Source: Gemmatimonadota bacterium (GTDB lineage: Bacteria; Gemmatimonadota; Gemmatimonadetes; Longimicrobiales; Gaopeijiaceae). Taken from it: a stretch of DNA of 64,000 nt. The stretch lies in the NCBI GenBank assembly GCA_034521595.1, contig JAXHMG010000003.1:448001-512000 (forward strand). Reading direction: 5' to 3'. Within the stretch, counting starts at the first letter, position 1; each line of letters opens with the position of its first letter. Shown in pieces: positions 6,427 to 38,250 of the stretch. The notes beneath the pieces were generated by a model, which was not told the origin of the DNA, made no database searches, and worked only from the letters and a program-made list of their open reading frames with translations. The translations under genes were made by a program, and so were the position numbers.

Positions 6427-7376
6427 CGGCCGTCCGGTTGGGCACGCGCGGGTCTCGGCTGGCGCTCACCCAGTCGGAATGGATCGCGGGCCTCCTGCGA
6501 GAGCGGCATCCCGGGCTCGAGGTCGAGCTCGTGCGGATCCGGACGTCGGGTGACTCCATACGTGACGTGCCGCTCGGCCCCGAGCTCGGGCAGGCGTTCT
6601 TCACGAAGGAGATCGAAGACGCGCTCCTGGACGGGCGAATCGACCTGGCGGTCCATTCCTGTAAGGATCTGGCGACGGCGATGCCCGAAGGGCTCCGGAT
6701 CGGGGCGATCCCGAAACGGGAGGATCCGCGTGACGTGCTCGTGAGCGGGTACGCAAGCCTGGGCGCGCTGCCGAAAGGGGCGACCGTGGGCACCTCGAGT
6801 CCGCGGCGGAAGGGGTTTTTGCGGGCCGCGCGCCCCGACTTGGATGTTCGTGACCAGCGTGGCAACGTTCCGACCCGGCTCCAAGCCGTCGACGACGGCG
6901 TCGTCGACGCCGTCGTGCTCGCGGCGGCCGGACTGGCTCGGCTCGGCTTCGCAGCCCGTGCCACGGAGATGATCGACCCCCACGTCATGCTTCCGGCCGC
7001 GGCCCAAGGGGCGCTCGCCGTGCAGGTTCGACGACAGGACGAGCGCATGGAGGCACTGACGGCGACGCTCGACGATCCGGCCACCCGGCGGACGGTGGAA
7101 GCGGAGCGGGCGTGTCTGAGTAGGTTGGAAGCCGGATGTCAGGCGCCCGTCGGTGTGCTCGCGACGCTCGGTGCCGACGGGATGCTCGACGTTCAGGCCG
7201 CCCTCGTCACGCCGGAGGGAGTGTTGAGGGCGGAGCGCTCCGAAGGACCCGACCTGTCGTCCGACGAGGTCGGAAGGGCGCTCGCGGAATCCCTGCTTCA
7301 GCAGGCCGGCCTTCCCTCGCTTCGGGATGCGGCCTGGGCCGGTCCGGCGCCCAGGACCCCGGATTCGGGAACATGA
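6423..7376 (+). CDS. hemC: Hydroxymethylbilane synthase (porphobilinogen deaminase)
   Basis: GTRGSRLALTQ, FTKEIE, HSCKD, GTSSPRR, RGNVPTRL, AGCQAP; TTGA overlap with hemA. Confidence 0.95.
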   Translation: MTAVRLGTRGSRLALTQSEWIAGLLRERHPGLEVELVRIRTSGDSIRDVPLGPELGQAFFTKEIEDALLDGRIDLAVHSCKDLATAMPEGLRIGAIPKREDPRDVLVSGYASLGALPKGATVGTSSPRRKGFLRAARPDLDVRDQRGNVPTRLQAVDDGVVDAVVLAAAGLARLGFAARATEMIDPHVMLPAAAQGALAVQVRRQDERMEALTATLDDPATRRTVEAERACLSRLEAGCQAPVGVLATLGADGMLDVQAALVTPEGVLRAERSEGPDLSSDEVGRALAESLLQQAGLPSLRDAAWAGPAPRTPDSGT

Positions 7377-9499
7377 GGCTCTTGGGCCGGGTGGTCGCCA
7401 CCACCCGGGACGGTGCGCCGGATGATCCATTGACGGGCAAGCTGGAGGCGGCAGGCGCGACCGTGGTCGAGTGGCCGGCCCTGGAGTTCGCTCCACCGGT
7501 GGATGAGGGAGCGCTCGACCGTGCTCGCCGCGGTGTTCTGGAGGGAGCCTTCGACTGGATCGTGTTCACCAGCGCCCGAGCGGTGGAAGCGCTCGGGCGG
7601 GGAGACGGCGTTCCGGGCGACGTGCGCGTGGCGGCCGTGGGCCGTGCGACCGCTCGCGCGCTTCGGCAAGTGGGGTGGCGAGTCGACGAGACGGGCACCA
7701 ACGATGCGCGAGACCTCGCGGATCAGATGGCCGGGAGCATGCGGCTCGACGGGACCCGGATCCTTTTTCCCGCGGGATCGCTCGCCGGGAGCGCGCTCGA
7801 GGACACCCTGGGAGCCTTGGGGGCCGAGGTGGAGCGGGTCGAGGCGTACAGGACGCGGGAAGTGCCTCCCGACCCGGAGAAGGTGCGCGCCGATCTGCGC
7901 CGCGGCATCGACGTCGTCGCCTTCGCCAGCCCCTCGGCGGTACGCTCGCTCGCCCGCGCTCTGGGACGTTCATGGACCGCCGACATGTCCGGTGTAGGGG
8001 TGGCGGCGATCGGGCCGTCGACCGAGCGTGCACTGGTGGAGGAAGGAATCGAGCGGGGGGACATCGTCACCGCCGCCCCTCCCGGCCTGGACGAGTTGGT
8101 CGAGGCGTGTCGGGTGGCGGTCACCGTGCGTCGAGACGATCCCATGGAGGCATCGGAACGGCCGCGCCAAGAAATCATGACCAAGGTGGAAGGAACGATG
8201 AACACGACACGGAGCGAGGAGCTCATAGCCCGTTCGCGAAAGATCATCCCGGGAGGCGTGAACAGCCCGGTGCGTGCCTTCACCGGAGTCGGGGGCACCC
8301 CGCGGTTCGTGCACTCGGCGGACGGCGCCTTTCTGAACGACGTGGACGGGAACCGGCTCCTCGACTACATCGGCTCGTGGGGCGTGATGGTCCTCGGTCA
8401 CGCCCATCCGGCCGTGCGGCACGCCCTCGCGGAAGCGATAGAGCGAGGCACGTCGTTCGGGACGGCCACGGAGGGCGAGGCCGAGCTCGCCGAAGCGATC
8501 GCGGAGCGTGTACCCAGCGTGGAGCTCTTGCGGTTGGTCAACTCGGGTACGGAAGCCACGATGAGCGCCCTTCGCCTCGCGCGGGCGGCGACCCAGCGGA
8601 CCCGCATCGTCAAGTTTCGGGGAGGCTACCACGGGCACGGGGATGCCTTTCTCGTCGAAGCCGGGTCGGGCGCGGCGACGCTGGGGGTCCCGTCGAGTCC
8701 CGGCGTGCCTACCGGGACCGTGGCCGATTCCCTCGTGGCGGAGTACAACGACTTGGCTTCGGTGGAAGCGCTGTTCGAAGCGAATCCGGATGAGATCGCG
8801 GCCGTCTTCGTCGAGCCGGTGGCGGGCAACATGGGCTGCATCCCACCGGCGGAAGGCTTTCTGGAAGGGCTCAGGGAGCTGACCTCGGCGCATGGGGCGT
8901 TGCTGATCTTCGACGAAGTGATGACGGGCTTCCGCGTGGCCGAAGGAGGCGCGCAAACACGCTACGGCGTCACGCCCGACCTCACCACGCTCGGCAAGGT
9001 GATCGGCGGCGGGCTTCCGGTCGGTGCGTACGGCGGGAGGGAGGACCTCATGCGCATGATCGCGCCGGACGGGCCCGTGTACCAGGCGGGAACGCTGTCC
9101 GGGAATCCGCTCGTGGTGGCCGCGGGACTCGCCACCCTGCGCTTTATCCGGGATGATGCGGGCGTCTACGATCATCTCGACCGCCTGGGCGCGATGTTCG
9201 ACGAAGGGTTCGCCGATATCGGACGTCGAGTGGGCGTCCCGCTGCGGTGGAACCGAGCGGGGGGGATGGGATCCCTCTTCTTCTCCGAGGGCCCGGTGGT
9301 GGATTGGGAGACCGCCGCGGCTTCGGATCGGGAGCGGTTCACTCGCTTCTTTCACGCGATGCTGGATCGCGGCATCCATTTGCCTCCGAGCTCGTTCGAG
9401 GCCTGGTTCTGGTCTTATGCGCACACGGAGGCGGACGTGACGCGGACATTGGAGGCCGTCGAGGAGGTTCTCGTGCGAGACGGAGCGGATCATGCCTGA
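7373..9499 (+). CDS. hemD-hemL: Uroporphyrinogen-III synthase read through in frame into glutamate-1-semialdehyde 2,1-aminomutase (HemD ~7373-8140; HemL from 8177/8198)
   Basis: HemD motifs FTSARAV, AVGRATA, FASPSAV, AIGPST; HemL motifs PGGVNSPVRAF, NSGTEA, DEVMTGFR, GKVIGGG; no stop between the domains. Confidence 0.9.
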   Translation: MRLLGRVVATTRDGAPDDPLTGKLEAAGATVVEWPALEFAPPVDEGALDRARRGVLEGAFDWIVFTSARAVEALGRGDGVPGDVRVAAVGRATARALRQVGWRVDETGTNDARDLADQMAGSMRLDGTRILFPAGSLAGSALEDTLGALGAEVERVEAYRTREVPPDPEKVRADLRRGIDVVAFASPSAVRSLARALGRSWTADMSGVGVAAIGPSTERALVEEGIERGDIVTAAPPGLDELVEACRVAVTVRRDDPMEASERPRQEIMTKVEGTMNTTRSEELIARSRKIIPGGVNSPVRAFTGVGGTPRFVHSADGAFLNDVDGNRLLDYIGSWGVMVLGHAHPAVRHALAEAIERGTSFGTATEGEAELAEAIAERVPSVELLRLVNSGTEATMSALRLARAATQRTRIVKFRGGYHGHGDAFLVEAGSGAATLGVPSSPGVPTGTVADSLVAEYNDLASVEALFEANPDEIAAVFVEPVAGNMGCIPPAEGFLEGLRELTSAHGALLIFDEVMTGFRVAEGGAQTRYGVTPDLTTLGKVIGGGLPVGAYGGREDLMRMIAPDGPVYQAGTLSGNPLVVAAGLATLRFIRDDAGVYDHLDRLGAMFDEGFADIGRRVGVPLRWNRAGGMGSLFFSEGPVVDWETAAASDRERFTRFFHAMLDRGIHLPPSSFEAWFWSYAHTEADVTRTLEAVEEVLVRDGADHA

Positions 9500-27996: not shown

Positions 27997-28279
27997 GCGC
28001 GATCCTCCGACATGGCGAGCCGGGGCGGTTGGGTAAGAGAACGTGGATGTGGTCGACGAAGCGACATGGGATCCTGCGAGGATGGCGGTGAGCGTTTCGA
28101 GGGCACCGGTGTAAGCTCCGGTGACCAACATGGTGGCGGTCCGCCTCGGGCGCGAGCGCATCGGGCTCAGCCGACGCGGATTGAAGCGTTTGCTCGGTGC
28201 GACGGATCGTCCCTTCGGGTACCGAAAGTGGTCATCATGCGAGGTGGCCGAAAGTCTGTTTTTTGTTTATGTATCACTA

Positions 28280-29434
28280 ATGACTGAATATGCAGAAGCG
28301 GGGGGCCGGAACGGGTCCGCGGAAGGGAATCGGACGCGTGTGGTCCTGAAGCTCGGAAGCCGCTTGCTGACCGGCGGGTCGACGAGGCTGGATCCCGAGC
28401 GGATGCGGTGCGTGGCCGAGATCGTGGCTGGTGAGCGGCAGAGCGAAGTGGTGATCGTCTCCAGCGGGGCGATCGCCGCCGGATTCAGAGCGCTCGGACA
28501 TACCGCGCCGCCGAGTCGGATCCGGGACCGTCAGGCGGCGGCCGCGGTGGGACAGACCCGGCTCATGGCGCTCTGGTCCGAAGCGTTCTCCTCGGTCGGT
28601 CTCGAGGTCGCGCAGGTGCTGCTCACCAACGACTGCCTCACCGACCGGCGCCGTTACGTGGCGGCCCGAAGGGCGCTGGCGACGTTGCTCGACGCTGGAG
28701 TCGTCCCGATCGTGAACGAGAACGACACGGTGAGCGTGGAAGAGATCGTGGTCGGCGACAACGACAACCTCGCAGCATCGGCCGCTGCCCTCGTGGATGC
28801 GGAATTGCTCGCGCTGCTCACGGACGTGCCCGGGGTCTACGATGGCGATCCGGAGGCGGGGGGCGAGGTTCGGCTCATCGAGGAGGTGGCCAGCGCGGAG
28901 GAGCTCCGGCCTTACTGCTTCGCCAAGAAGGCTCGCGAGTCCACGGGGGGGATGCAGACGAAGCTGGACGCGGCGGAGCGGGCGGGGCGGTACGGCATTC
29001 CCACGGTGGTCGCGTCGGGAAGCGATCCGCGAGCGATGGAAGCGATCGTCCGTGGGGAGCGCGCGGGGACCTACATCGCGGCCTCCGAGCGGCCGCTCGC
29101 CGCGCGGAGGCATTGGATGGCCGTGCAGCGGGGGCTCGTCGGCGCCATCGTGGTGGATCGCGGCGCCGTCGACGCGCTTCGGCGGCGGGCGAACCTCCTC
29201 CCTAGCGGGATCGTCGAGGTGCGCGGGCACTTTCGGAGTGGGGACCTCGTCTCGGTCATGGACACGGAGGGGGTGGAGCAGGCCCGTGGAATCGTGAGGC
29301 TCGATGACCGCGAGGTGGACAGGATCCGCGGCCTCCATACGACCGACGCCAAAGAGGCGCTCGGCCGGGACCGGAGCCACGTCGTGCTGCGGCCCGACCG
29401 CATGGTATTGATCGACGAGGAGGGTAGGGTGTGA
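28280..29434 (+). CDS. proB: Glutamate 5-kinase with PUA domain
   Basis: VVLKLGS, VSSGAIAAG, AAAVGQ, NENDTV, GDNDNLAA, TGGMQTK. Confidence 0.95.
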   Translation: MTEYAEAGGRNGSAEGNRTRVVLKLGSRLLTGGSTRLDPERMRCVAEIVAGERQSEVVIVSSGAIAAGFRALGHTAPPSRIRDRQAAAAVGQTRLMALWSEAFSSVGLEVAQVLLTNDCLTDRRRYVAARRALATLLDAGVVPIVNENDTVSVEEIVVGDNDNLAASAAALVDAELLALLTDVPGVYDGDPEAGGEVRLIEEVASAEELRPYCFAKKARESTGGMQTKLDAAERAGRYGIPTVVASGSDPRAMEAIVRGERAGTYIAASERPLAARRHWMAVQRGLVGAIVVDRGAVDALRRRANLLPSGIVEVRGHFRSGDLVSVMDTEGVEQARGIVRLDDREVDRIRGLHTTDAKEALGRDRSHVVLRPDRMVLIDEEGRV

Positions 29435-30741
29435 GCACCACGGACGCGAGGACGGAAGCTCCCGGTGGGCCGGAGGCCGGCTCCGTGAGCGCCGAGATGA
29501 CGACTATGGCCCGCAGGGCGCGGACGGGGGCGCGCGAGGTGGCACGCCTCGACGCGGAGGACCGGTCGGCGGCCTTGCGCGAGATCGCGGCGGCGCTCGA
29601 AGGTGGGGCCGACGAGATCCTCCGGGCGAACACGAAGGATCTGGAGCGTGCGGACGAGCGCGGTGTGACGGGGCCGCTGCGAGATCGCCTGAAGCTCGAC
29701 AAAGAGGGGGTACTCGGGATCGCCGCTGCCGTCCGGGAGATCGCGGGGCAGGAGGATCCGCTGGGCCGGATCGAGGACGAGCACGTGCGACCCAACGGGC
29801 TGCGTGTGGGGCGGATGCGGATTCCGCTCGGAGTCGTGGCGATGATTTACGAGAGTCGGCCCAACGTCACTGCGGACGCGGCCGCGCTCTGTCTTCGGGC
29901 GGGCAATGCGGTCATCCTGCGCGGCGGATCGGAGGCCATTCACTCGAATCGGGCGATCGCCGAGGCGGTGCGGGCGGGGCTCGCCCGCTCGAGCGTGCCG
30001 GTCGATGCCGTGCAGCTCGTGCCGACCACGGAGCGAGAGGCCGTCGACGCGCTTCTCCGCCAGGAGGACACGATCGACCTCGTGATCCCCCGAGGCGGCG
30101 AGAGCCTCATCCGCGCGGTCACGGAGAAGAGCCGGATCCCGGTGCTCCAGCACTTCAAGGGAGTCTGTCACATGTACCTGGATGCCTCGGCGCCGGCAGA
30201 GCGCGCCGACGAGCTGGTGCTCAATGCCAAGGTGCAGCGTCCGGGCGTTTGCAATGCCCTGGAAACCCTACTGGTGCACCGCGACGCGGCCGCGCGTCTG
30301 TTGCCACGCCTCGCGGACCGGTTGTCGGATGCGGGCGTGGCGCTCCGGGGATGCCCGGCCACCCTTTCCGTGCTGTCCGATCGGAGAGTTCGGCCCGCGA
30401 CGGAAGACGACTGGAAGGCGGAGTACCTCGACCTGATCCTCGCCGTGCGCATCGTCGATGATCTCGAGGACGCGCTCGAACACATCGCGACGTACGCGTC
30501 CGGACATACTGAAGCGATCGTCACCGACGACGAGGAAGCCGCCCGCGTGTTCGTGGAGGCGGTCCAGTCTTCGACCGTCTTGGTCAACGCGAGCACCCGC
30601 TTCGCCGACGGAGGCGAGCTCGGCCTCGGCGCGGAGATCGGCATCTCCACCTCGAAGCTGCACGCGTACGGACCCATGGGGGCCCGAGAGCTGACGACCC
30701 GAAAGTTCGTCGTGTTCGGCGACGGACAGGTGAGAGCGTGA
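29431..30741 (+). CDS. proA: Gamma-glutamyl phosphate reductase
   Basis: PLGVVAMIYESRPNVT, GVCNALETLL, NASTRFADG, GAEIGIST. Confidence 0.96.
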   Translation: MSTTDARTEAPGGPEAGSVSAEMTTMARRARTGAREVARLDAEDRSAALREIAAALEGGADEILRANTKDLERADERGVTGPLRDRLKLDKEGVLGIAAAVREIAGQEDPLGRIEDEHVRPNGLRVGRMRIPLGVVAMIYESRPNVTADAAALCLRAGNAVILRGGSEAIHSNRAIAEAVRAGLARSSVPVDAVQLVPTTEREAVDALLRQEDTIDLVIPRGGESLIRAVTEKSRIPVLQHFKGVCHMYLDASAPAERADELVLNAKVQRPGVCNALETLLVHRDAAARLLPRLADRLSDAGVALRGCPATLSVLSDRRVRPATEDDWKAEYLDLILAVRIVDDLEDALEHIATYASGHTEAIVTDDEEAARVFVEAVQSSTVLVNASTRFADGGELGLGAEIGISTSKLHAYGPMGARELTTRKFVVFGDGQVRA

Positions 30742-30748
30742 CGGGACG

Positions 30749-31390
30749 TCAGCCGAAAGCTCCATAGAGGGCGTCGAGGGCCAACATGACGTCGTCGTTG
30801 TTGAGGTAGACGTGGAACTCCCGGGTGGTCGAGGTAACCTCCGCGAGGTTGATTCCTTGAAGCGCGAGCGGTTGGAGCAAACGGTAGAGCACTCCGGGTC
30901 GTCGCAGCTGCTCGTCCGTGAGTGAGACCGAGAGGCTGGTCGCGTTACGGACCTGGCGTGTCGGCCGTTCCTCGACCGTGTCTCGCACGGTGTCGAGCGT
31001 GCGCTCTTCGACGATCAGGGTGATCTCCCGGATGCCCTCGGTGATCGTCAGGTATCGCTGCTCCCCGCGCATGAGCTCTTGGAGCGCGATCAACCCCTCC
31101 CGACACCGTGGTGTGTTGGGGAACGTGAGGATGGCCAGACCCCGTTGGACCGTGACCCGGTCGGTTAGCGGAAGCGGAGGTCCGTGCTCCGGATCGGGAA
31201 GATCCGCCTGGAGCCTCGACAGCGCCATCGCGATGGCCGAGGCGTTCACGGTTTTCTGCGTGCGGGCTTCGACCGCGCCGTGGATGTGCCGAGCCACCTG
31301 GCTCAGGTTCATCAGGCGCTGCGCGAGCCCCGTCCGGACGACCGGGTCGTGATCCACGATCTCCCGCACGGCATCCGCGATCTTGATCAT
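30749..31390 (-). CDS. ACT-domain protein with helical N-domain; putative amino-acid-responsive regulator
   Basis: N-terminal NLSQVAR...AIAMALSR helices; C-terminal PGVLYRLL...GINL.EV.ST..E ACT-like motif; no kinase domain; divergent from lysW. Confidence 0.6.
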   Translation of the reverse strand: MIKIADAVREIVDHDPVVRTGLAQRLMNLSQVARHIHGAVEARTQKTVNASAIAMALSRLQADLPDPEHGPPLPLTDRVTVQRGLAILTFPNTPRCREGLIALQELMRGEQRYLTITEGIREITLIVEERTLDTVRDTVEERPTRQVRNATSLSVSLTDEQLRRPGVLYRLLQPLALQGINLAEVTSTTREFHVYLNNDDVMLALDALYGAFG

Positions 31391-31425
31391 GGTTGGTCGA
31401 GCCTCCCGTGTCCTCGCTTGGTGGA

Positions 31426-31443
31426 TGTTTCAAAATAAACAAA
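31426..31443. promoter_or_regulatory. AT-rich palindrome, candidate operator in the divergent promoter region
   Basis: TGTTT-CAAAAT-AAACA; its minus-strand TTTGTTTAT also occurs at 28262-28270 just before proB. Confidence 0.35.
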
Positions 31444-31582
31444 TTTCGTTCTTCATGGTGTATTTCCTCGAATTCTTTGGGGCAATCGCGGGATCCGCCC
31501 ATCATCCCCGCATCGATTGACGGTGCGCGGCGCCGCGACGGACGGAGCGGCGCACGGAAACGGAATGTGACAGGAGAGAACG

Positions 31583-31765
31583 ATGAGCGTAGCGACGACG
31601 ACCGAGTGCCCGGTGTGCGGTGGCGAAGTGGATGCTGCTTCCGACGTGATCGTGGGTGAGCTGCTGGATTGCGACGAATGCGGCAGTGAGCTCGAAGTCA
31701 CCGCCTTGAGCCCGAACCCGGTGCTCATCGAGGCCCCGATGTCCGCAGAGGACTGGGGAGAGTAG
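31583..31765 (+). CDS. lysW: Amino-group carrier protein LysW/ArgW
   Basis: CPVC...CDEC zinc ribbon and invariant C-terminal EDWGE; RBS AGGAGA. Confidence 0.96.
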   Translation: MSVATTTECPVCGGEVDAASDVIVGELLDCDECGSELEVTALSPNPVLIEAPMSAEDWGE

Positions 31766-31767
31766 GG

Positions 31768-32682
31768 TTGACCGCCCCGTCGGCCGATCCGTCGGACGGC
31801 GGGTCCGAGGGCCGGCCCTCCGTTGCGCTCGTATGCACCGGTGTTCGGCCCGAAGAAAAGATGCTCCTGGCGGCTTTTCGGGCGCGCGGTGCCGTGCTGG
31901 AGGTCGTGGACGACAGGGGAATCCACGGCGACCTCTCGGGTTGGCCGGTCGGGTTGCCGAGGGTCGACGCGGTTCTGCTCCGGGCCAAGAGCCATTGGCG
32001 CAACACGGTGCTCGCCCGGTGGCTCCGCACGCTCGGCGTCACGACGGTTAACCCGGCCATGGTCCTGGAGACCTGCGGCGACAAGGTGTCCACGACGTTG
32101 GCGCTCCTCGACGCGGGAGTGCCGACCCTGTCCGCTTCCGTCGCCTTCACGGGTGCCGGGGGGCTGGAAGCCGCGGACGCGCTCGGCTATCCCCTGGTCG
32201 TCAAGCCGGTGATCGGGTCCTGGGGCCGCCTGATCGGTAAGGTGAACGACCGGGACGCGCTGGAGACGGTGCTCGACCACAAGGATGCGCTGGGCGGGGC
32301 GCCGCACGCGGTCACCTACCTCCAGCCCTACGTGGAGCTTCAGGGGCGCGACATCCGAGCGTTCGTGATCGGTGGGCGCTGTGTCGCGGCGATCCACCGG
32401 AGCTCCCGGCACTGGAAGACGAACACCCACCTGGGAGCAGAGGCCTCCGCCATGGAGGTCGACGAAGCCTTGGCAGGCATCTCCGAAGCGGCCGCGGCCG
32501 CCGTGGGCGGTGGCGCCGTCGCGATCGACCTGTTCGAAACGGACGACGGCTACGTGGTCAACGAAGTCAACGGATCGATGGAGTTTCGGAATTCGGTGGA
32601 TACGACCGGAGTCGACATCCCCGGCCTCCTGGCCGAATATACGCTAGCCGTCGCCGCGACCGGCGGGGTGGAGGCCACGTGA
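31768..32682 (+). CDS. lysX: ATP-grasp LysW ligase (LysX/ArgX, RimK family)
   Basis: RPEEKML, CGDK, KPVIGSWGRL, RDIR, WKTNT, NEVN..MEF. Confidence 0.92.
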   Translation: MTAPSADPSDGGSEGRPSVALVCTGVRPEEKMLLAAFRARGAVLEVVDDRGIHGDLSGWPVGLPRVDAVLLRAKSHWRNTVLARWLRTLGVTTVNPAMVLETCGDKVSTTLALLDAGVPTLSASVAFTGAGGLEAADALGYPLVVKPVIGSWGRLIGKVNDRDALETVLDHKDALGGAPHAVTYLQPYVELQGRDIRAFVIGGRCVAAIHRSSRHWKTNTHLGAEASAMEVDEALAGISEAAAAAVGGGAVAIDLFETDDGYVVNEVNGSMEFRNSVDTTGVDIPGLLAEYTLAVAATGGVEAT

Positions 32683-33752
32683 CTCGCGTTTCCATCCTCG
32701 GAGCGTCCGGATACGGGGGAGGCGAGCTCCTACGGATTCTGCTCGGCCACCCGCACGTCGAGATCGGTCAGGTCACGTCCAGGCGGCTCGCGGGGAAGCC
32801 GGTGCACCGTGCGCATCCGAACCTCCGGGGTCACACCTCGCTCCGCTTCTCGTCTCCCGACGAGCTCGAGCCCTGCGATCTGCTCTTTCTCGCGCTCCCG
32901 CACGGCGGAGCGTCGGCGCGGTGGGACGCGCTCGAGCCCCTTGCCGAGCGTTTCGTGGACATGAGCGCAGACTTCAGGCTCGACGATCCAGGGCTTTATG
33001 AGCGCTACTACGGGCCGCATCCACGCCCGGAGCTTCTGGGCACATTCGCCTATGGCTTGGCCGAAGCGAACCGGGAACAAATCCGGGGCGCCAGGCGCGT
33101 CGCGACCGGCGGGTGCAACGCCACCGTCTCGATCCTGGCCCTTCTGCCGTTGTACGAGGCGGGCGTAGTGCTGCCGGATCGGACGGTGGTCGATGTGAAG
33201 GTGGGCTCGAGTGAGGCCGGCGCCGACGCGAACGAAGGCTCGCACCATCCGGTCCGGAGTGGCGTCGTACGTCCGTACAGTCCCACCGGTCACCGCCACA
33301 CGGCCGAGGTCGAAGCCGTGCTGCGTGGTCTGTCCGACGGTGCCGGAGATCCCAGGGACGTCTCGCCCTCGGAGGCCCGGGTGCACCTGAGCGTGACCGC
33401 CATCGAAATGGTCCGTGGCGCTGCGGCGCTGGCGCACGTGTTTCTCCGAGAAGGCGTCTCACAGCGCGACATCTGGTCCATCTACCGGAAGCGGTACGCG
33501 GACGAGCCGTTCGTTCGAATCGTCTCCGAGCGACAGGGCGCCTACCGGCTCCCCGAGCCCAAGCTGCTGTCCGGGACGAATCACTGCGACATCGGTTTCG
33601 AGCTCGACGCGTCGGGAGAACGGTTGGTCGTGGCCGCGGCGATCGACAACCTCGTGAAGGGCTCGGCGGGGCAGGCGGTCCAGGCGATGAACCTGATGCT
33701 GGGCTGGGACGAGCGGGCGGGGCTCGGGTTCCCGGGCCTGCACCCCATCTAG
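32679..33752 (+). CDS. lysY: LysW-gamma-aminoacyl-phosphate reductase (LysY/ArgC)
   Basis: GASGYGGGELLR, SADFRL, GCNAT, GSSEAG, HRHTAE, IDNLVKGSAGQ, C-terminal GLHP. Confidence 0.93.
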   Translation: MTRVSILGASGYGGGELLRILLGHPHVEIGQVTSRRLAGKPVHRAHPNLRGHTSLRFSSPDELEPCDLLFLALPHGGASARWDALEPLAERFVDMSADFRLDDPGLYERYYGPHPRPELLGTFAYGLAEANREQIRGARRVATGGCNATVSILALLPLYEAGVVLPDRTVVDVKVGSSEAGADANEGSHHPVRSGVVRPYSPTGHRHTAEVEAVLRGLSDGAGDPRDVSPSEARVHLSVTAIEMVRGAAALAHVFLREGVSQRDIWSIYRKRYADEPFVRIVSERQGAYRLPEPKLLSGTNHCDIGFELDASGERLVVAAAIDNLVKGSAGQAVQAMNLMLGWDERAGLGFPGLHPI

Positions 33753-33777
33753 CTCGGGCAGCAAGGAGCGCTTGACG

Positions 33778-34461
33778 ATGTGTCGGTTCTTCGCCCTCCG
33801 GTCGGACGGGCCCGTCGATCCCGTGCCCTGGATCGCGTCGTTCGCCGAGCGCTGCAGGGTCAGCAAGGAGTACCAGGGTCATGGGTGGGGCGTGAGCTGG
33901 TGGGACGGTGAGGGCTGGCAGCGCCACCGCTCCGTCCGTCCCATCTGGGAGGAGGTGCCGGAGGAGCTTCCGAGCGCCACGATCGTGCTCGTGCATGCAC
34001 GGAGCGCGTTCCGTAACGAGGGCATCGTCGTGGAGAACAACATGCCGTTCGTGGCTGACGATATGGCCTTTGCGTTCAACGGCGAGCTCCGGGGAGTTCG
34101 CTTGAGCGTGCCGGGCGAGACCGGAGCTGCGAAGCTCTTCGAGCTTCTTCGGCGCTTCCGTGCGGCGGACGGGAATACGGAAGGAGCGCTCCGGAGGCTC
34201 GACCGGGTGGTCACCGCCCGCACGGAGTACGTCCGCGCGCTGAACACGGTGGTCAGTGACGGACGAGACGTGTGGGCAAGCAGCCGGTACTCGGAGGACC
34301 CGGAGTATTTTACGCTCTGGCAGGCATGGTTGCCGCTCCTGGCCGGCGGAACATCCGCGGTTTCGTCCGAGCCGTTGGACGTCGACGGGCAGCGGCCGGA
34401 ATGGGACCCCATGCCCCATGGAGAGATTCTGAAGATCGACCGGGAGACCACGTGCTCGTAG
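33778..34461 (+). CDS. Class II glutamine amidotransferase-fold (Ntn) hydrolase, EgtC/YafJ-like
   Basis: M-C-R N-terminal nucleophile, GWG, HARSA, NNMPF, FNG oxyanion hole, VSSEPL; RBS AAGGAG. Confidence 0.85.
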   Translation: MCRFFALRSDGPVDPVPWIASFAERCRVSKEYQGHGWGVSWWDGEGWQRHRSVRPIWEEVPEELPSATIVLVHARSAFRNEGIVVENNMPFVADDMAFAFNGELRGVRLSVPGETGAAKLFELLRRFRAADGNTEGALRRLDRVVTARTEYVRALNTVVSDGRDVWASSRYSEDPEYFTLWQAWLPLLAGGTSAVSSEPLDVDGQRPEWDPMPHGEILKIDRETTCS

Positions 34462-36470
34462 TCAAGATAGGGGGCGGCGATCTGGATCTGGGCGAGATCG
34501 CCGACGACCTCGCGGCGCTCGACGACCCGTTCGTGCTGATTCACGGAGCCAACAAGCTCCGGGACGAGCTCGCGCACGCCCTGGGGAGGCCGCCGAAGGT
34601 GGTCGAGTCGATCTCCGGATACACGAGCGTGCTCTCGGACGACGACGCCATCGACGTGCTGATGGCAGCCTACGCCGGCGTGCGCAACAAGCGCCTCGTG
34701 GAGGCCCTGCGTCGTGCCGGCGTCGATGCCGTCGGGTTGACCGGCCTCGACGGTGGACTGGTCGAAGGCGTCCGGAACAAGGGGATTCGGGTCAAGCAGG
34801 ACGGGCGCAAGCTCCTCCTTCGCGACAACTCCGGAAAGCCCCGATCCGTGAACGGAGATCTGCTACGCGACCTCCTGGCGCGAGGCCACGCACCCGTCAT
34901 CACGGTACCGATCGCGGGTGAGGACGGATCGGCCCTGAACACCGAGAACGACGAGGTCCTCGCGCTCTTGAGCGCCGAGCTCGGTGCGACCGACGTCGTC
35001 TCGCTCATCGAGGCGCCCGGGCTGCTGACCGACAAGGACGATCCGGAGTCCCTGGTGCAGCGGGTGGACGCGAACGAGCTGGAGGGGTGGGAGAAACGCG
35101 TCGAGGGGCGGATGCGTCGCAAGATTCGTGCGCTCAGGTCCCTTTTCGATCGCGCTGGAACACCCGGGCCACGGGTCCGGCTGAGTGATGGCCGAGTGTC
35201 GCGACCCGTATCTCGAGCGCTCGAAGGTGCCGGCACGCTCTTCGCGCGAAACGGAGCTTCGTCCGAGGAATCTCCGGCCGAGGCGTCGACCTCGAATCAC
35301 TGGCTCGAGCGGATGGCCGAGCACGAGCTCGATGTCTACGGGAAGCGAGGGTTGACCCTCGTCGGTGGTGAAGGAGCTCGGGTGACCGACGTGGAAGGAA
35401 GGTCTTACATCGACTGCATCGGGGGGCACGGAGCGTTGGCGCTCGGGCACAGGCATCCCGCGCAGGTCGCTGCGCTGCGCCGGGCGGCCGAGGGGCCGTG
35501 GTTCGTTCCCGGATCCTTCGGTAGCCCCCCGCGGGTGGCGTTCCTGGAAAGGCTGCACGAGATCCTGCCCGACGAGCTGGCCCGGACGTTCCTTTCGAAC
35601 TCCGGCACGGAAGCCGTGGAAGCCGCCCTCAAGATCGCCCGGGCCCATACGGGCCGCAGCGAGTTCGTGGCTGCGGTGCGGGGCTTCCACGGACGGACCT
35701 TCGGGGCGCTCTCCGTTACCTCGGAGGCGCACTTTCGTAAGCCGTTCGAGCCCCTGCTCGGCGACGTGCGGCGGGTCCGATTCAACGATGCAGCCGGCCT
35801 GGCCGAAGCCGTGAGCGACCGGGTGGCCGCGGTCGTTCTCGAGCCCGTTCAGGGAGAAGGGGGTGTGCACGTCGCCGAGCCTGCCTTCCTCCGCGCCGCG
35901 CGGGAGGCCTGTGATGCGCACGGCGCGCTGCTGATTTTCGACGAGGTACAGACCGGGTTCGGTCGGACCGGCACGCTCTTCGCCTTCGAGCGCTCGGGGG
36001 TGGTCCCCGACGTTCTGTGCCTGGCGAAGAGCATAGCCGGAGGACTCCCACTCGGTGCGACGGTCGTGCGCGAAGGTATCTCGCTGCCCGTGGGAACACA
36101 CGGCTCCACGTTCGGCGGGAATCCACTCGCCACGGCGGTGGCGAGCGCTACGCTCGATGTCTTGACCGCGCCGGAGGGCGAAGCGCTGCTCGCCGAGGCG
36201 GAGCCGAAGGGGCAGCGTCTGGCCGAACGCATCCGCGACGCCGACCTCGAGCAGGTACGTGAGGTCCGGCAAGTCGGCCTGATGGTCGGGATCCAGATGC
36301 GTCGGCGGTTGGGTGACCTGCTCGGTGACCTGCAGGAGCGCGGGGTCCTCGCCCTGTCCGCGGGGTCGAAGGTCGTGCGGCTCCTGCCGCCGCTCGTGAT
36401 CAGCGACGAAGAGGTCGAGCTGGTCGGGGACGCCCTGCTCGAGGTTTTGTCGGCCTCCGGGACGCGATAG
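34452..36470 (+). CDS. lysZ-lysJ: Fused LysW-substrate kinase (LysZ) and PLP aminotransferase (LysJ/ArgD)
   Basis: VVKIGG, GLTGLDG, GRMRRK kinase motifs; then NSGTEAVEAA, FHGRT, EPVQGEGG, DEVQTG, AKS, HGSTFGGNP; one continuous frame. Confidence 0.9.
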   Translation: MLVVKIGGGDLDLGEIADDLAALDDPFVLIHGANKLRDELAHALGRPPKVVESISGYTSVLSDDDAIDVLMAAYAGVRNKRLVEALRRAGVDAVGLTGLDGGLVEGVRNKGIRVKQDGRKLLLRDNSGKPRSVNGDLLRDLLARGHAPVITVPIAGEDGSALNTENDEVLALLSAELGATDVVSLIEAPGLLTDKDDPESLVQRVDANELEGWEKRVEGRMRRKIRALRSLFDRAGTPGPRVRLSDGRVSRPVSRALEGAGTLFARNGASSEESPAEASTSNHWLERMAEHELDVYGKRGLTLVGGEGARVTDVEGRSYIDCIGGHGALALGHRHPAQVAALRRAAEGPWFVPGSFGSPPRVAFLERLHEILPDELARTFLSNSGTEAVEAALKIARAHTGRSEFVAAVRGFHGRTFGALSVTSEAHFRKPFEPLLGDVRRVRFNDAAGLAEAVSDRVAAVVLEPVQGEGGVHVAEPAFLRAAREACDAHGALLIFDEVQTGFGRTGTLFAFERSGVVPDVLCLAKSIAGGLPLGATVVREGISLPVGTHGSTFGGNPLATAVASATLDVLTAPEGEALLAEAEPKGQRLAERIRDADLEQVREVRQVGLMVGIQMRRRLGDLLGDLQERGVLALSAGSKVVRLLPPLVISDEEVELVGDALLEVLSASGTR

Positions 36471-36705
36471 GTCTCGCTGCGTCATTTCCTCTGATGCAAC
36501 GCTCCGGTGACTTCGGAGCGTCTACCACGGGCTGCTCAAGCTGCGTCGGCCACTCGTTGATCCGGCGAGCGCCGAACGGGATGGAGGCCGGTTGGTGGTG
36601 GTTCTGCGGGGTGAAACTTTCCGCGCTCGGAGCACGAAGGGTCAGACACGGAGGGGCGCAGGGGCTTCCCTCCCGAAACGAGAAGCAGGGACGAGGTCAA
36701 AGGAC

Positions 36706-36942
36706 ATGATCAACACGCATCTCAGGAAACGGAACGAGGTCCCATGGTGGGCGGTGATCGGTGCGCCGGTCGTGGGGGTTCCGTGCATCGTGGCGCTCCT
36801 GGCGCTGGCAGGTCCCGAGCAGGAGGCTGGCGGGGCGGACACGGAGGTGGACTTCGCAGTGGAGCAGCTCGACGTCGAGCCGGCGGAGGCGCGGCTCGAG
36901 GCCCGGAGCATCGGTCCGATCCGGTTGGTCGCGAGCTGCTGA
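36706..36942 (+). CDS. Small membrane-anchored hypothetical protein
   Basis: AAAGGA RBS; one hydrophobic segment then acidic tail. Confidence 0.4.
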   Translation: MINTHLRKRNEVPWWAVIGAPVVGVPCIVALLALAGPEQEAGGADTEVDFAVEQLDVEPAEARLEARSIGPIRLVASC

Positions 36943-36966: not shown

Positions 36967-38043
36967 TTACCCGAACAGCTCCATCTGGGCCGGGCCGGAC
37001 TCCGCGGGTCGACGGAACGCCGCGGCGGAGAGCGGCGGCGCGTTCTCCAAGGCCAACCGCCGGCGCTGGACCCGGAAGACCGAGCGTAAATGTTCGGCCC
37101 ACGGTCCTTCCCCACGCCCTCGGACACCGAACCGTGCGTCGTAGAGAGCTCCGCCCCTGAGCTCTCGGATCCGATTCAGCACCTTTTCCGCCCGCTCGGG
37201 CGCGTGCTGCCTCAACCATCCCTCGAACATCTCCTTTACGCCGTGTGGCAGCCGGAGCAGGATCATCCCGGCGAACGAAGCACCAGCGTCGGCCGCGGCC
37301 TGGAGGATGGCCGGGATCTCGTGGTCGGTGAGTCCCGGAATGACCGGTGCGACGTTCACGCCCACGGGTATGCCCGCGTCGGCCAGCACTTGGATGGCAC
37401 CGAGGCGCCGGGCCGGGGTCGAAGCACGGGGCTCCAGCTTGCCCTGCAGCTTGCGGTTCAGGGTCGTGACCGAGATGAAGACGGCGGCTGCATCGTGTCG
37501 TGCCAGGTCGGCCAGGAGGTCGACGTCCCGGCTCACGAGGTAGCTCTTCGTGGTTATGCCCACCGGATTCCGAAACTCGGATAGGATCTCGAGGCAGCGG
37601 CGCGTGACCCTCAGGCGGCGCTCCACCGGCTGATACGCGTCGGTATTTCCGCTGAGAGCGATCGTGCGCGGCGTCCACTTGGGTGATGCGAGGGCGTCTC
37701 GCAACAGATCCGGAGCTTCCGGCTTCACGAGGATGCGGGTTTCGAAATCCAGTCCCGCGGAGAAGCCCAGGTACTCGTGCGTGGGCCGGGCGTAGCAGTA
37801 GGCGCAGGCGTGCTCACACCCTCGGTACGGATTGATCCCGACATCGAAACCCACGTCGGGCGAGTCGTTGAACGACAGGATGGAACGACTCGCGTCCCTG
37901 AGGAGGACGGTGTCGGGAGGCGGGTCGTCTGTATCCGTCCACCGCTCACGCTCGACGTGGAGGCGGTCGTAACGGTTCGGTGGATTCCAGGCGACGCCCC
38001 GACCACGGAGCGTGGGCAGCGGAAGGTTTAGTGGCGAGTCCAT
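36967..38043 (-). CDS. PA0069/SplB-like radical SAM protein
   Basis: NPYRGCEHACAYCYARP (CxxxCxxC), TDAYQPVE, APVIPGL. Confidence 0.9.
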   Translation of the reverse strand: MDSPLNLPLPTLRGRGVAWNPPNRYDRLHVERERWTDTDDPPPDTVLLRDASRSILSFNDSPDVGFDVGINPYRGCEHACAYCYARPTHEYLGFSAGLDFETRILVKPEAPDLLRDALASPKWTPRTIALSGNTDAYQPVERRLRVTRRCLEILSEFRNPVGITTKSYLVSRDVDLLADLARHDAAAVFISVTTLNRKLQGKLEPRASTPARRLGAIQVLADAGIPVGVNVAPVIPGLTDHEIPAILQAAADAGASFAGMILLRLPHGVKEMFEGWLRQHAPERAEKVLNRIRELRGGALYDARFGVRGRGEGPWAEHLRSVFRVQRRRLALENAPPLSAAAFRRPAESGPAQMELFG

Positions 38044-38250
38044 GGAAGACAATGATACCGAATAAAGACCGAATATCAAGCGGTGGGACGCGACACGCGG
38101 ATGCACGAACGCCCCGGCGGGCTCAAGCGCTCGCCGAGGCGTTCGTGGAGTTGGGCTTCCCCCTGATCGCGGCCCCTGGAGAAAGGGCGCCGCGAACGGG
38201 TTGACGACCGTCGGAGCGCGCTCCGACGGTCGTGTTCGCGCGTCCGTGCG

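Follow-up and report, generated by a model that had tools for sequence, protein, structure and literature searches.

A Cys-Ntn amidohydrolase gene in place of lysK in a Gemmatimonadota LysW operon: a probable non-homologous product-release enzyme

Introduction

In the LysW (amino-group carrier protein) route to lysine and ornithine, release of the product is assumed to require LysK, an M20 enzyme of the ArgE/DapE family ([LysW]-lysine/[LysW]-ornithine hydrolase; models TIGR01902 and NF003367). Here we describe a LysW operon at 31583-36470 (+ strand) of a 64,000-nucleotide window, the whole stretch of DNA analysed (contig JAXHMG010000003.1, positions 448,001 to 512,000, of the Gemmatimonadota assembly GCA_034521595.1), which departs from the known pathway in the LysK step: no LysK over cut-off was found in the genome, and the operon contains a gene for a cysteine N-terminal nucleophile (Cys-Ntn) protein of the class-II glutamine amidotransferase (GATase) fold, hereafter the Ntn protein. 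In our judgement this protein, encoded at 33778-34461, is probably a gamma-glutamyl amidohydrolase that replaces LysK, without homology to it, in product release from LysW; its activity is inferred. All positions below are those of the window.

Among described enzymes, the closest in fold is EgtC of the ergothioneine pathway (PDB 4ZFJ, 4ZFK and 4ZFL; TIGR03442), which, by its entry titles and established biochemistry, hydrolyses a gamma-glutamyl amide as a stand-alone enzyme and frees the amine part. The bond that it cleaves is of the type joining LysW to its product; EgtC, however, acts on a small molecule whose glutamyl alpha-amine is free, whereas the glutamyl residue proposed for the Ntn protein is the end of a protein. 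Yeast Dug3 contributes to cleavage of the gamma-glutamyl bond in glutathione, and uncharacterised GATase_4 proteins (PDB 3MDN and 1TE5; YafJ-type) share the Pfam family and fold of the Ntn protein. Neither these nor Dug3 are known to be linked to carrier-protein operons, whereas the Ntn family described here is distinct from them and tied to lysZ.

An initial reading of this DNA, the preliminary description, had proposed an undescribed variant of the pathway in a lineage not classically known for LysW. In line with the first part, full-text searches of openly readable articles gave no link between LysW or amino-group carrier proteins and an Ntn or class-II GATase hydrolase, and no proposal of such an enzyme. 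The second part was only partly right: a Gemmatimonadota paper already lists the LysW-glutamate route to ornithine for this phylum, and does so without the Ntn gene (PMC11651109). The Caldithrix abyssi genome paper assigns 'LysWXZYJ and Hcs' to a single eight-tag locus and leaves lysine synthesis open, with possible non-orthologous displacement (PMC5317091).

Results and discussion

An operon with an Ntn gene and without lysK

Open reading frame (ORF) listing and family scans identified five genes in the operon, lysW, lysX, lysY, the Ntn gene and a fused lysZ::lysJ:

31583..31765, + strand: lysW/argW, a 60-amino-acid zinc-ribbon amino-group carrier protein with C-terminal EDWGE
31768..32682, + strand: lysX/argX, an ATP-grasp ligase loading substrate onto the last LysW residue; start codon uncertain
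32679..33752, + strand: lysY/argC-type semialdehyde dehydrogenase (reductase)
33763..33768, + strand: AAGGAG ribosome-binding site, read from the sequence, 9 bases 5' of the Ntn ATG
33778..34461, + strand: Cys-Ntn amidohydrolase (class-II GATase fold, GATase_4), 227 amino acids with a Met-Cys start; proposed [LysW]-ornithine/lysine gamma-glutamyl amide hydrolase
34452..36470, + strand: lysZ::lysJ fusion, with the kinase domain at about 34452-35162 and the class-III aminotransferase domain at about 35364-36443

By family matches, the LysX, LysZ, LysY and LysJ functions are all represented in the operon. LysW scored 52 bits with PF21344 (Zn_ribbon_LysW; cut-off 27) and 52.3 bits with TIGR01206, slightly below the cut-off of 53.2, and its four cysteines and the tail E56-D57-W58-G59 are invariant across 46 homologues. 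The LysX match to TIGR02144 was borderline (276.3 bits, cut-off 275.6), with PF22626 and PF08443 also matched, and LysY scored 364.1 bits with the argC model TIGR01850 (cut-off 233.6), its gene being the only argC-type gene of the genome that adjoins an AA-kinase. The single lysZ::lysJ ORF matched PF00696 (87 bits) and PF00202 (346 bits), and the LysJ/ArgD models at approximately 390-397 bits. The lysX and lysY genes overlap by 4 bases, a spacer of 25 bases containing the AAGGAG site precedes the Ntn ATG, and the GTG at 34452, which overlaps the Ntn stop codon, is probably the start of lysZ. ORFs, family scans and junctions thus agree with the tightly packed lysW-lysX-lysY-GATase-fold gene-lysZ/lysJ operon of the preliminary description, whose gene order stands; its lysZ and lysJ do not stand as drawn, being one fused ORF whose listed start at 34272 is probably too early.

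The absence of an M20 lysK from the operon and the window, claimed at the outset, was borne out, as all 13 genomic PF01546 matches lie outside C3:448001-512000. Across the 3.49-Mb genome (93% complete), no LysK over its family cut-off was found: the best TIGR01902 score was 80.1 bits (cut-off 163.1), and the [LysW]-lysine hydrolase model NF003367 gave at most 107.6 bits (cut-off 363) with the M20 proteins of the genome. The four best M20 proteins are YgeY-like, an ArgE/DapE-family deacylase, carboxypeptidase-like and a dipeptidase. That another M20 enzyme acts as a cryptic LysK is unlikely, both from the scores (80-108 bits; cut-offs 163 and 363) and from the distribution described below. Five other genomes with Ntn operons, those of Sulfidibacter corallicola and Acanthopleuribacter pedis and metagenome-assembled genomes (MAGs) of Melioribacter roseus, Arenicellales and Planctomycetota, also gave no LysK over cut-off.

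The Ntn gene is linked to lysZ and excludes lysK

A pattern scan of species-representative genomes returned at least 573 loci encoding relatives of the Ntn protein, and the queries used to annotate the best 80 were the window's own proteins and four of this genome's M20 proteins. These 80 loci span Gemmatimonadota, Acidobacteriota, Ignavibacteriota, Calditrichota, Pseudomonadota, Planctomycetota and others, such that the Ntn-type operon extends to many phyla and is not confined to Gemmatimonadota. The gene directly 3' of the Ntn gene was lysZ in 78 of the 80, and in the remaining two the contig stops within 170 bases; the complete lysW-lysX-lysY-Ntn-lysZ-lysJ order was found in 59. None of the 80 had an M20 match within 10 kb; the same queries recovered lysK in LysK-type loci. 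No lysW, lysX or lysY was seen upstream in 10 of the 80, and L094 was without lysY alone. Five of these 10 genomes (L036, L042, L048, L057 and L069) were tested for LysX, which was present elsewhere in four. In the split operons L031, L033, L042, L048, L057 and L069, which consist of only the Ntn gene, lysZ and lysJ, the upstream 2.3 kb or more is unrelated sequence.

LysK-type operons (L105, L106, L110, L111 and L113-L117) have the order W-X-Y-Z-J-K. In L107-L109, a divergent Ntn subtype scoring 76-154 bits with the profile, the arrangement is W-X-Y-(homocitrate-synthase-like)-Z-J-Ntn, the Ntn gene standing last, in the lysK slot.

The distribution of the two genes was counted in three phyla with LysX (TIGR02144), which is independent of both Ntn and LysK, as the pathway marker:

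Gemmatimonadota sample: 151 genomes, 11 LysX-positive; 9 Ntn only, 2 LysK only, 0 both, 0 neither
Acidobacteriota sample: 201 genomes, 23 LysX-positive; 14 Ntn only, 9 LysK only, 0 both, 0 neither
Planctomycetota sample: 151 genomes, 14 LysX-positive; 1 Ntn only, 13 LysK only, 0 both, 0 neither

The 48 LysX-positive genomes therefore divide into 24 with Ntn only and 24 with LysK only, with no co-occurrence and none lacking both, providing the mutual exclusion that had been suggested as a check; like the genome search for lysK, this outcome favours the original proposal. The 14 Ntn-only Acidobacteriota include G307, which is flagged unpublished, and G057 and G097 enter the denominators only. 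Two Acidobacteriota genomes without LysX gave marginal signals, a partial Ntn-like match in G182 and a LysK-like match below threshold in G323.

The Ntn protein has an EgtC-like fold and a conserved active site

The Ntn protein matched Pfam GATase_4 (PF13230) with 39.1 bits (gathering threshold 23), weakly matched EgtC and matched no M20 model; NCBIfam holds no specific model for it. Its ORF opens ATG TGT, placing Cys directly after the initiator Met, and the Met-Cys start is shared by 83 of 84 homologues, the exception (L112) being a fragment. In-frame TGA codons flagged in several matches are the gene's own stop codon overrun by the profile match, as read in three cases. C2, R75, N101, G102, G113 and G116 are invariant across 56 diverse sequences. 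At 50% identity and E <= 1e-30, the family is moderate in size, comprising 156 representatives among 1.84 billion, mostly stand-alone proteins of 210-230 amino acids.

An AlphaFold2 model of the protein (predicted local distance difference test score, pLDDT, 94.7; predicted template modelling score 0.91) has the four-layer alpha-beta-beta-alpha Ntn fold with Asn-Gly and Arg. In a Foldseek search against the PDB, the best matches were the three EgtC entries (template modelling score 0.74, 20-22% identity, E 6.5e-13), followed by 1TE5 and 3MDN and then by the glutaminase domains of GlmS and PurF. Single-sequence PDB searches gave weak EgtC matches (E 0.08-0.18), those from profile and fold searches being stronger, and in the profile-to-PDB alignment R75 and N101-G102 fall on the EgtC Arg and Asn-Gly, such that the N-terminal Cys, the Arg and the Asn-Gly are all shared with EgtC. 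The genomic context differs from that of EgtC, the neighbours in the window and across the 80 loci being lysW, lysX, lysY, lysZ and lysJ (egtA, egtB, egtD and egtE themselves were not searched for). In the class-II GATase fold, we take the Asn-Gly to be the oxyanion hole and the Arg to be the carboxylate binder.

The motif SDTDTEV contains a second Asp, which in glutaminase domains binds glutamine by its free alpha-amine. When the Ntn family was aligned by hhalign to the GlmS glutaminase domain of this genome (probability 0.2), G116 stood opposite this Asp; tentatively, and judging from the alignment, its loss to G116 might make room for a peptide chain.

The Pfam assignment is no narrower than GATase_4, many members of which are functionally uncharacterised. 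The protein could accordingly be a glutaminase or amidotransferase subunit of the usual kind, or belong to some unrelated pathway, its gene being kept in the operon for reasons of regulation or history. We regard this as extremely improbable, the least credible of the alternatives considered here. The LysW pathway is established to have no ammonia-requiring step, a synthase partner domain is neither fused nor adjacent and the family representatives stand alone, and the linkage to lysZ, the exclusion of lysK and the complex model of the LysW tail described below would all be left unexplained. A role in product release, by comparison, assigns the Ntn protein the same proposed isopeptide hydrolysis in the same pathway as LysK, with mutually exclusive distributions and, in the divergent subtype, the same operon position. 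There is no homology between the two: the Ntn protein is a metal-free Cys-Ntn protein of approximately 227 amino acids with the alpha-beta-beta-alpha class-II GATase fold, implying covalent thioester catalysis, unlike LysK. Judged on sequence, it would be a functional analogue of LysK and not a member of the M20 family.

The LysW C-terminus points to the Ntn enzyme

In 65 Ntn-type operons, LysW ends EDWGQ in 30 and EDWGE in 35, whereas in LysK-type operons it ends EDWGE in 24 of 24 and in Gln in none (Fisher p = 8e-6, the related genomes not being independent). The Gln-ended loci include L027, L028, L034, L044, L045, L053, L058, L061, L067, L070 and L073-L075. Near relatives differ in this residue (Glu in L043 and Gln in L044; Glu in L062 and Gln in L061 and L067), and at least 10 Glu/Gln switches are required on the LysY tree, with L050, a paralogous argC on a long branch, removed from the later count. 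In five genomes with a Gln-ended LysW, no second full-length LysW was found.

A Gln terminus offers LysX no gamma-carboxylate, and a glutaminase-type enzyme acting on the last residue would restore one; as far as these tails allow a judgement, only such an enzyme would make a Gln-ended LysW tolerable. The Gln-ended carriers independently tie the Ntn enzyme to the last residue of LysW. Deamidation by the Ntn enzyme would explain the Gln-ended LysW of nearly half of the Ntn-type operons, and tolerance of this terminus would set the enzyme apart from LysK.

The Gln ends (30/65), along with the other M20 enzymes encoded in the genome, would also suit a more restricted role, in which the Ntn enzyme only deamidates a Gln-ended pro-LysW and product is released by a hydrolase outside the operon, for example a general ArgE/DapE-family M20 enzyme. 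This seems very unlikely to us. The remaining 35 of the 65 operons retain the gene although their LysW ends in Glu; the window's own LysW is one of them (EDWGE), so that the Ntn gene here cannot be kept for deamidation alone. Further, the gene is swapped one for one with lysK in 48 of 48 genomes and takes the lysK position in L107-L109, and an M20 gene lies within 10 kb in none of the 80 loci.

Modelling of the LysW complex had been proposed as a check. With both partners supplied as alignments, the Ntn-LysW model reached a median interaction prediction score from aligned errors (ipSAE) of 0.61 (runs 0.52, 0.63 and 0.61), compared to 0.02 for the best of three controls; the ipSAE mark is reached by 58 of 80 solved complexes and by 2 of 110 mismatched pairs. 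Contact agreement between the runs was at least 98% and the partner pLDDT at least 80. LysW residues 55-60 (AEDWGE) contact Ntn residues 1-2, 75-78, 100-111 and 115-117, placing the tail on the nucleophile Cys2, Arg75, Asn101-Gly102 and G116, the last of which contacts W58 and G59 of LysW. The model supports binding of LysW by the Ntn enzyme; no solved structure of LysW bound to a protein of this fold is known to us.

Proposed mechanism and weighing of the evidence

In the mechanism that we propose, Met1 would be removed and Cys2 would attack the gamma-carbonyl of the C-terminal Glu of LysW, which an isopeptide bond joins to the alpha-amino group of the completed amino acid. The oxyanion hole would be formed by Asn101-Gly102, with Arg75 holding the free alpha-carboxylate of the last residue. 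The leaving product would be ornithine here and, where the operon has a homocitrate-synthase-like gene, lysine; hydrolysis of the resulting LysW gamma-glutamyl thioester would yield free LysW. The same chemistry would deamidate a C-terminal Gln to the active Glu form of the carrier.

An acyl-enzyme intermediate is part of Cys-Ntn catalysis, and other Ntn enzymes such as gamma-glutamyltranspeptidase do perform transfer. The product could thus leave while the LysW thioester is resolved by the alpha-amine of glutamate or aminoadipate, giving an ATP-free, ArgJ-like reloading in which LysX serves only for priming, and the mid-operon position of the Ntn gene, beside those of enzymes using loaded LysW, would suit such a transfer. 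We think it quite unlikely, as lysX is kept in every Ntn-type genome examined (though lysX also served as a selection marker), LysX is found elsewhere in four of five genomes with split operons, and the nearest structural relative, EgtC, is a plain hydrolase according to its PDB entry titles. A broader scheme, in which the enzyme runs a two-function carrier cycle of pro-LysW activation by deamidation and ATP-free reloading by thioester transfer, with LysX again only priming, is speculative and, in our estimation, unlikely; the carrier would be made inert, amide-protected as a Gln-capped pro-LysW, and neither function is known for LysK.

Release of the product by hydrolysis, the reading that we favour, is strongly supported by gene content, synteny, complementary distribution, fold, conserved residues and the complex model, and with the Gln-ended LysW these agree with the earlier suggestion that 33778-34461 encodes a non-homologous product-release enzyme. 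Several points weigh against it. The Ntn protein scored 54.3 bits with the EgtC equivalog TIGR03442, far under the cut-off of 218.65 and below membership, so that the case for its chemistry is made on fold and residues instead of orthology. Other M20 proteins of the ArgE/DapE family in the genome could in principle cleave LysW conjugates; one of them scored 218.5 bits against a subfamily cut-off of 217.6, and the YgeY-like protein 282 against 321. With regard to the distribution, Ntn and LysK were tested only in the 14 LysX-positive genomes of the Planctomycetota, the sampled genomes are interrelated and not independent, many are MAGs, in which absence means 'not found', and G000, G151 and G155 are search centres picked for their Ntn gene, without which the split is 21 versus 24. 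The complex score is the model's own confidence, obtained with self-made alignments and only approximately calibrated. Finally, catalytic activity, substrate and deamidation are inferred from computation.

Genomes with a LysW operon but no lysK score as incomplete or auxotrophic in pathway reconstructions. If our reading is true, the pathway would be completed in Gemmatimonadota, Acidobacteriota, Ignavibacteriota, Calditrichota, some Gammaproteobacteria, Planctomycetota and others, and an Ntn family of 156 representatives without an assigned function would gain one. It would also constitute a case of convergence, in which a metallohydrolase is replaced by a covalent cysteine hydrolase on a protein-bound substrate. 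The Gln ends of LysW suggest that the carrier has to be activated enzymatically, and its deamidation would correspond to a mass shift of +0.98 Da. For genome annotation, the finding yields a simple rule for LysW operons of the Ntn type.

Ornithine is the most likely product in this genome

Both dapA and lysA scored over their cut-offs in the genome, argF and argH are present, no homocitrate synthase over cut-off was found, and neither argJ nor an argB other than the window's lysZ was found. On this basis, the operon is most likely the only glutamate-to-ornithine route of this genome, and lysine was rejected as its product here.

Elsewhere, the product may differ. Of the 80 loci, 15 have a homocitrate-synthase-like gene within the operon, as do all three divergent loci, suggesting that these operons make lysine; three of the encoded proteins were scanned and scored 280-351 bits with TIGR02146, under the cut-off of 413.55. 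The gene is placed as follows:

between lysW and lysX: L027, L028, L034, L043, L044, L053, L056, L060-L062, L067, L079, L092, L094 and L095, and also L109
between lysY and lysZ: L107 and L108

In Melioribacteraceae/Ignavibacteria loci, a second, more distant argC-argB-argD set was observed directly 3' of the Ntn-type operon:

L043, 13027-17172: second argC/argB/argD set
L044, 12842-16994: second argC/argB/argD set
L050, 4586-5572: second argC/argB/argD set

In some Melioribacteraceae, such an additional set adjoining the operon points to lysine. By analogy with LysK, the Ntn family would then serve both products; LysK is reported to serve both lysine and ornithine (PMC12998189).

Evolution of the operon and neighbouring genes

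In the LysY tree, nine of ten LysK-type rows cluster weakly (Shimodaira-Hasegawa approximate likelihood-ratio test 80), and the Ntn-type rows fall in several clades that cross phyla, with Gemmatimonadota at two distant positions, fitting between-lineage transfer of the whole operon. The backbone of the tree is unresolved, with at least three type changes, and a single origin of the Ntn type is compatible with it. Fusion of lysZ with lysJ was seen only in the window's clade (8 Gemmatimonadota loci, L017-L020 and L022-L025), the two genes being separate in 82 others. In one Ntn-type operon, L063, tandem genes for LysX-like ATP-grasp proteins occur at 7275-8087 and 8129-8935, and may be a LysX/ArgX pair for two substrates.

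A promoter and terminator scan of 31300-36800 gave no promoter-like sites and two terminator-like sites, both intragenic and not above shuffles. Directly 5' of the operon lie proB (366 bits) and proA (582 bits) at 28277-30741 (+ strand). Between these and the operon, 30749-31390 (- strand) encodes a 213-amino-acid protein with weak ACT and DUF7523 matches only, which may be a regulator of glutamate-derived pathways. On the 3' side, 36967-38106 (- strand) encodes a PA0069-family radical SAM protein (462 bits) that appears unrelated to the operon.

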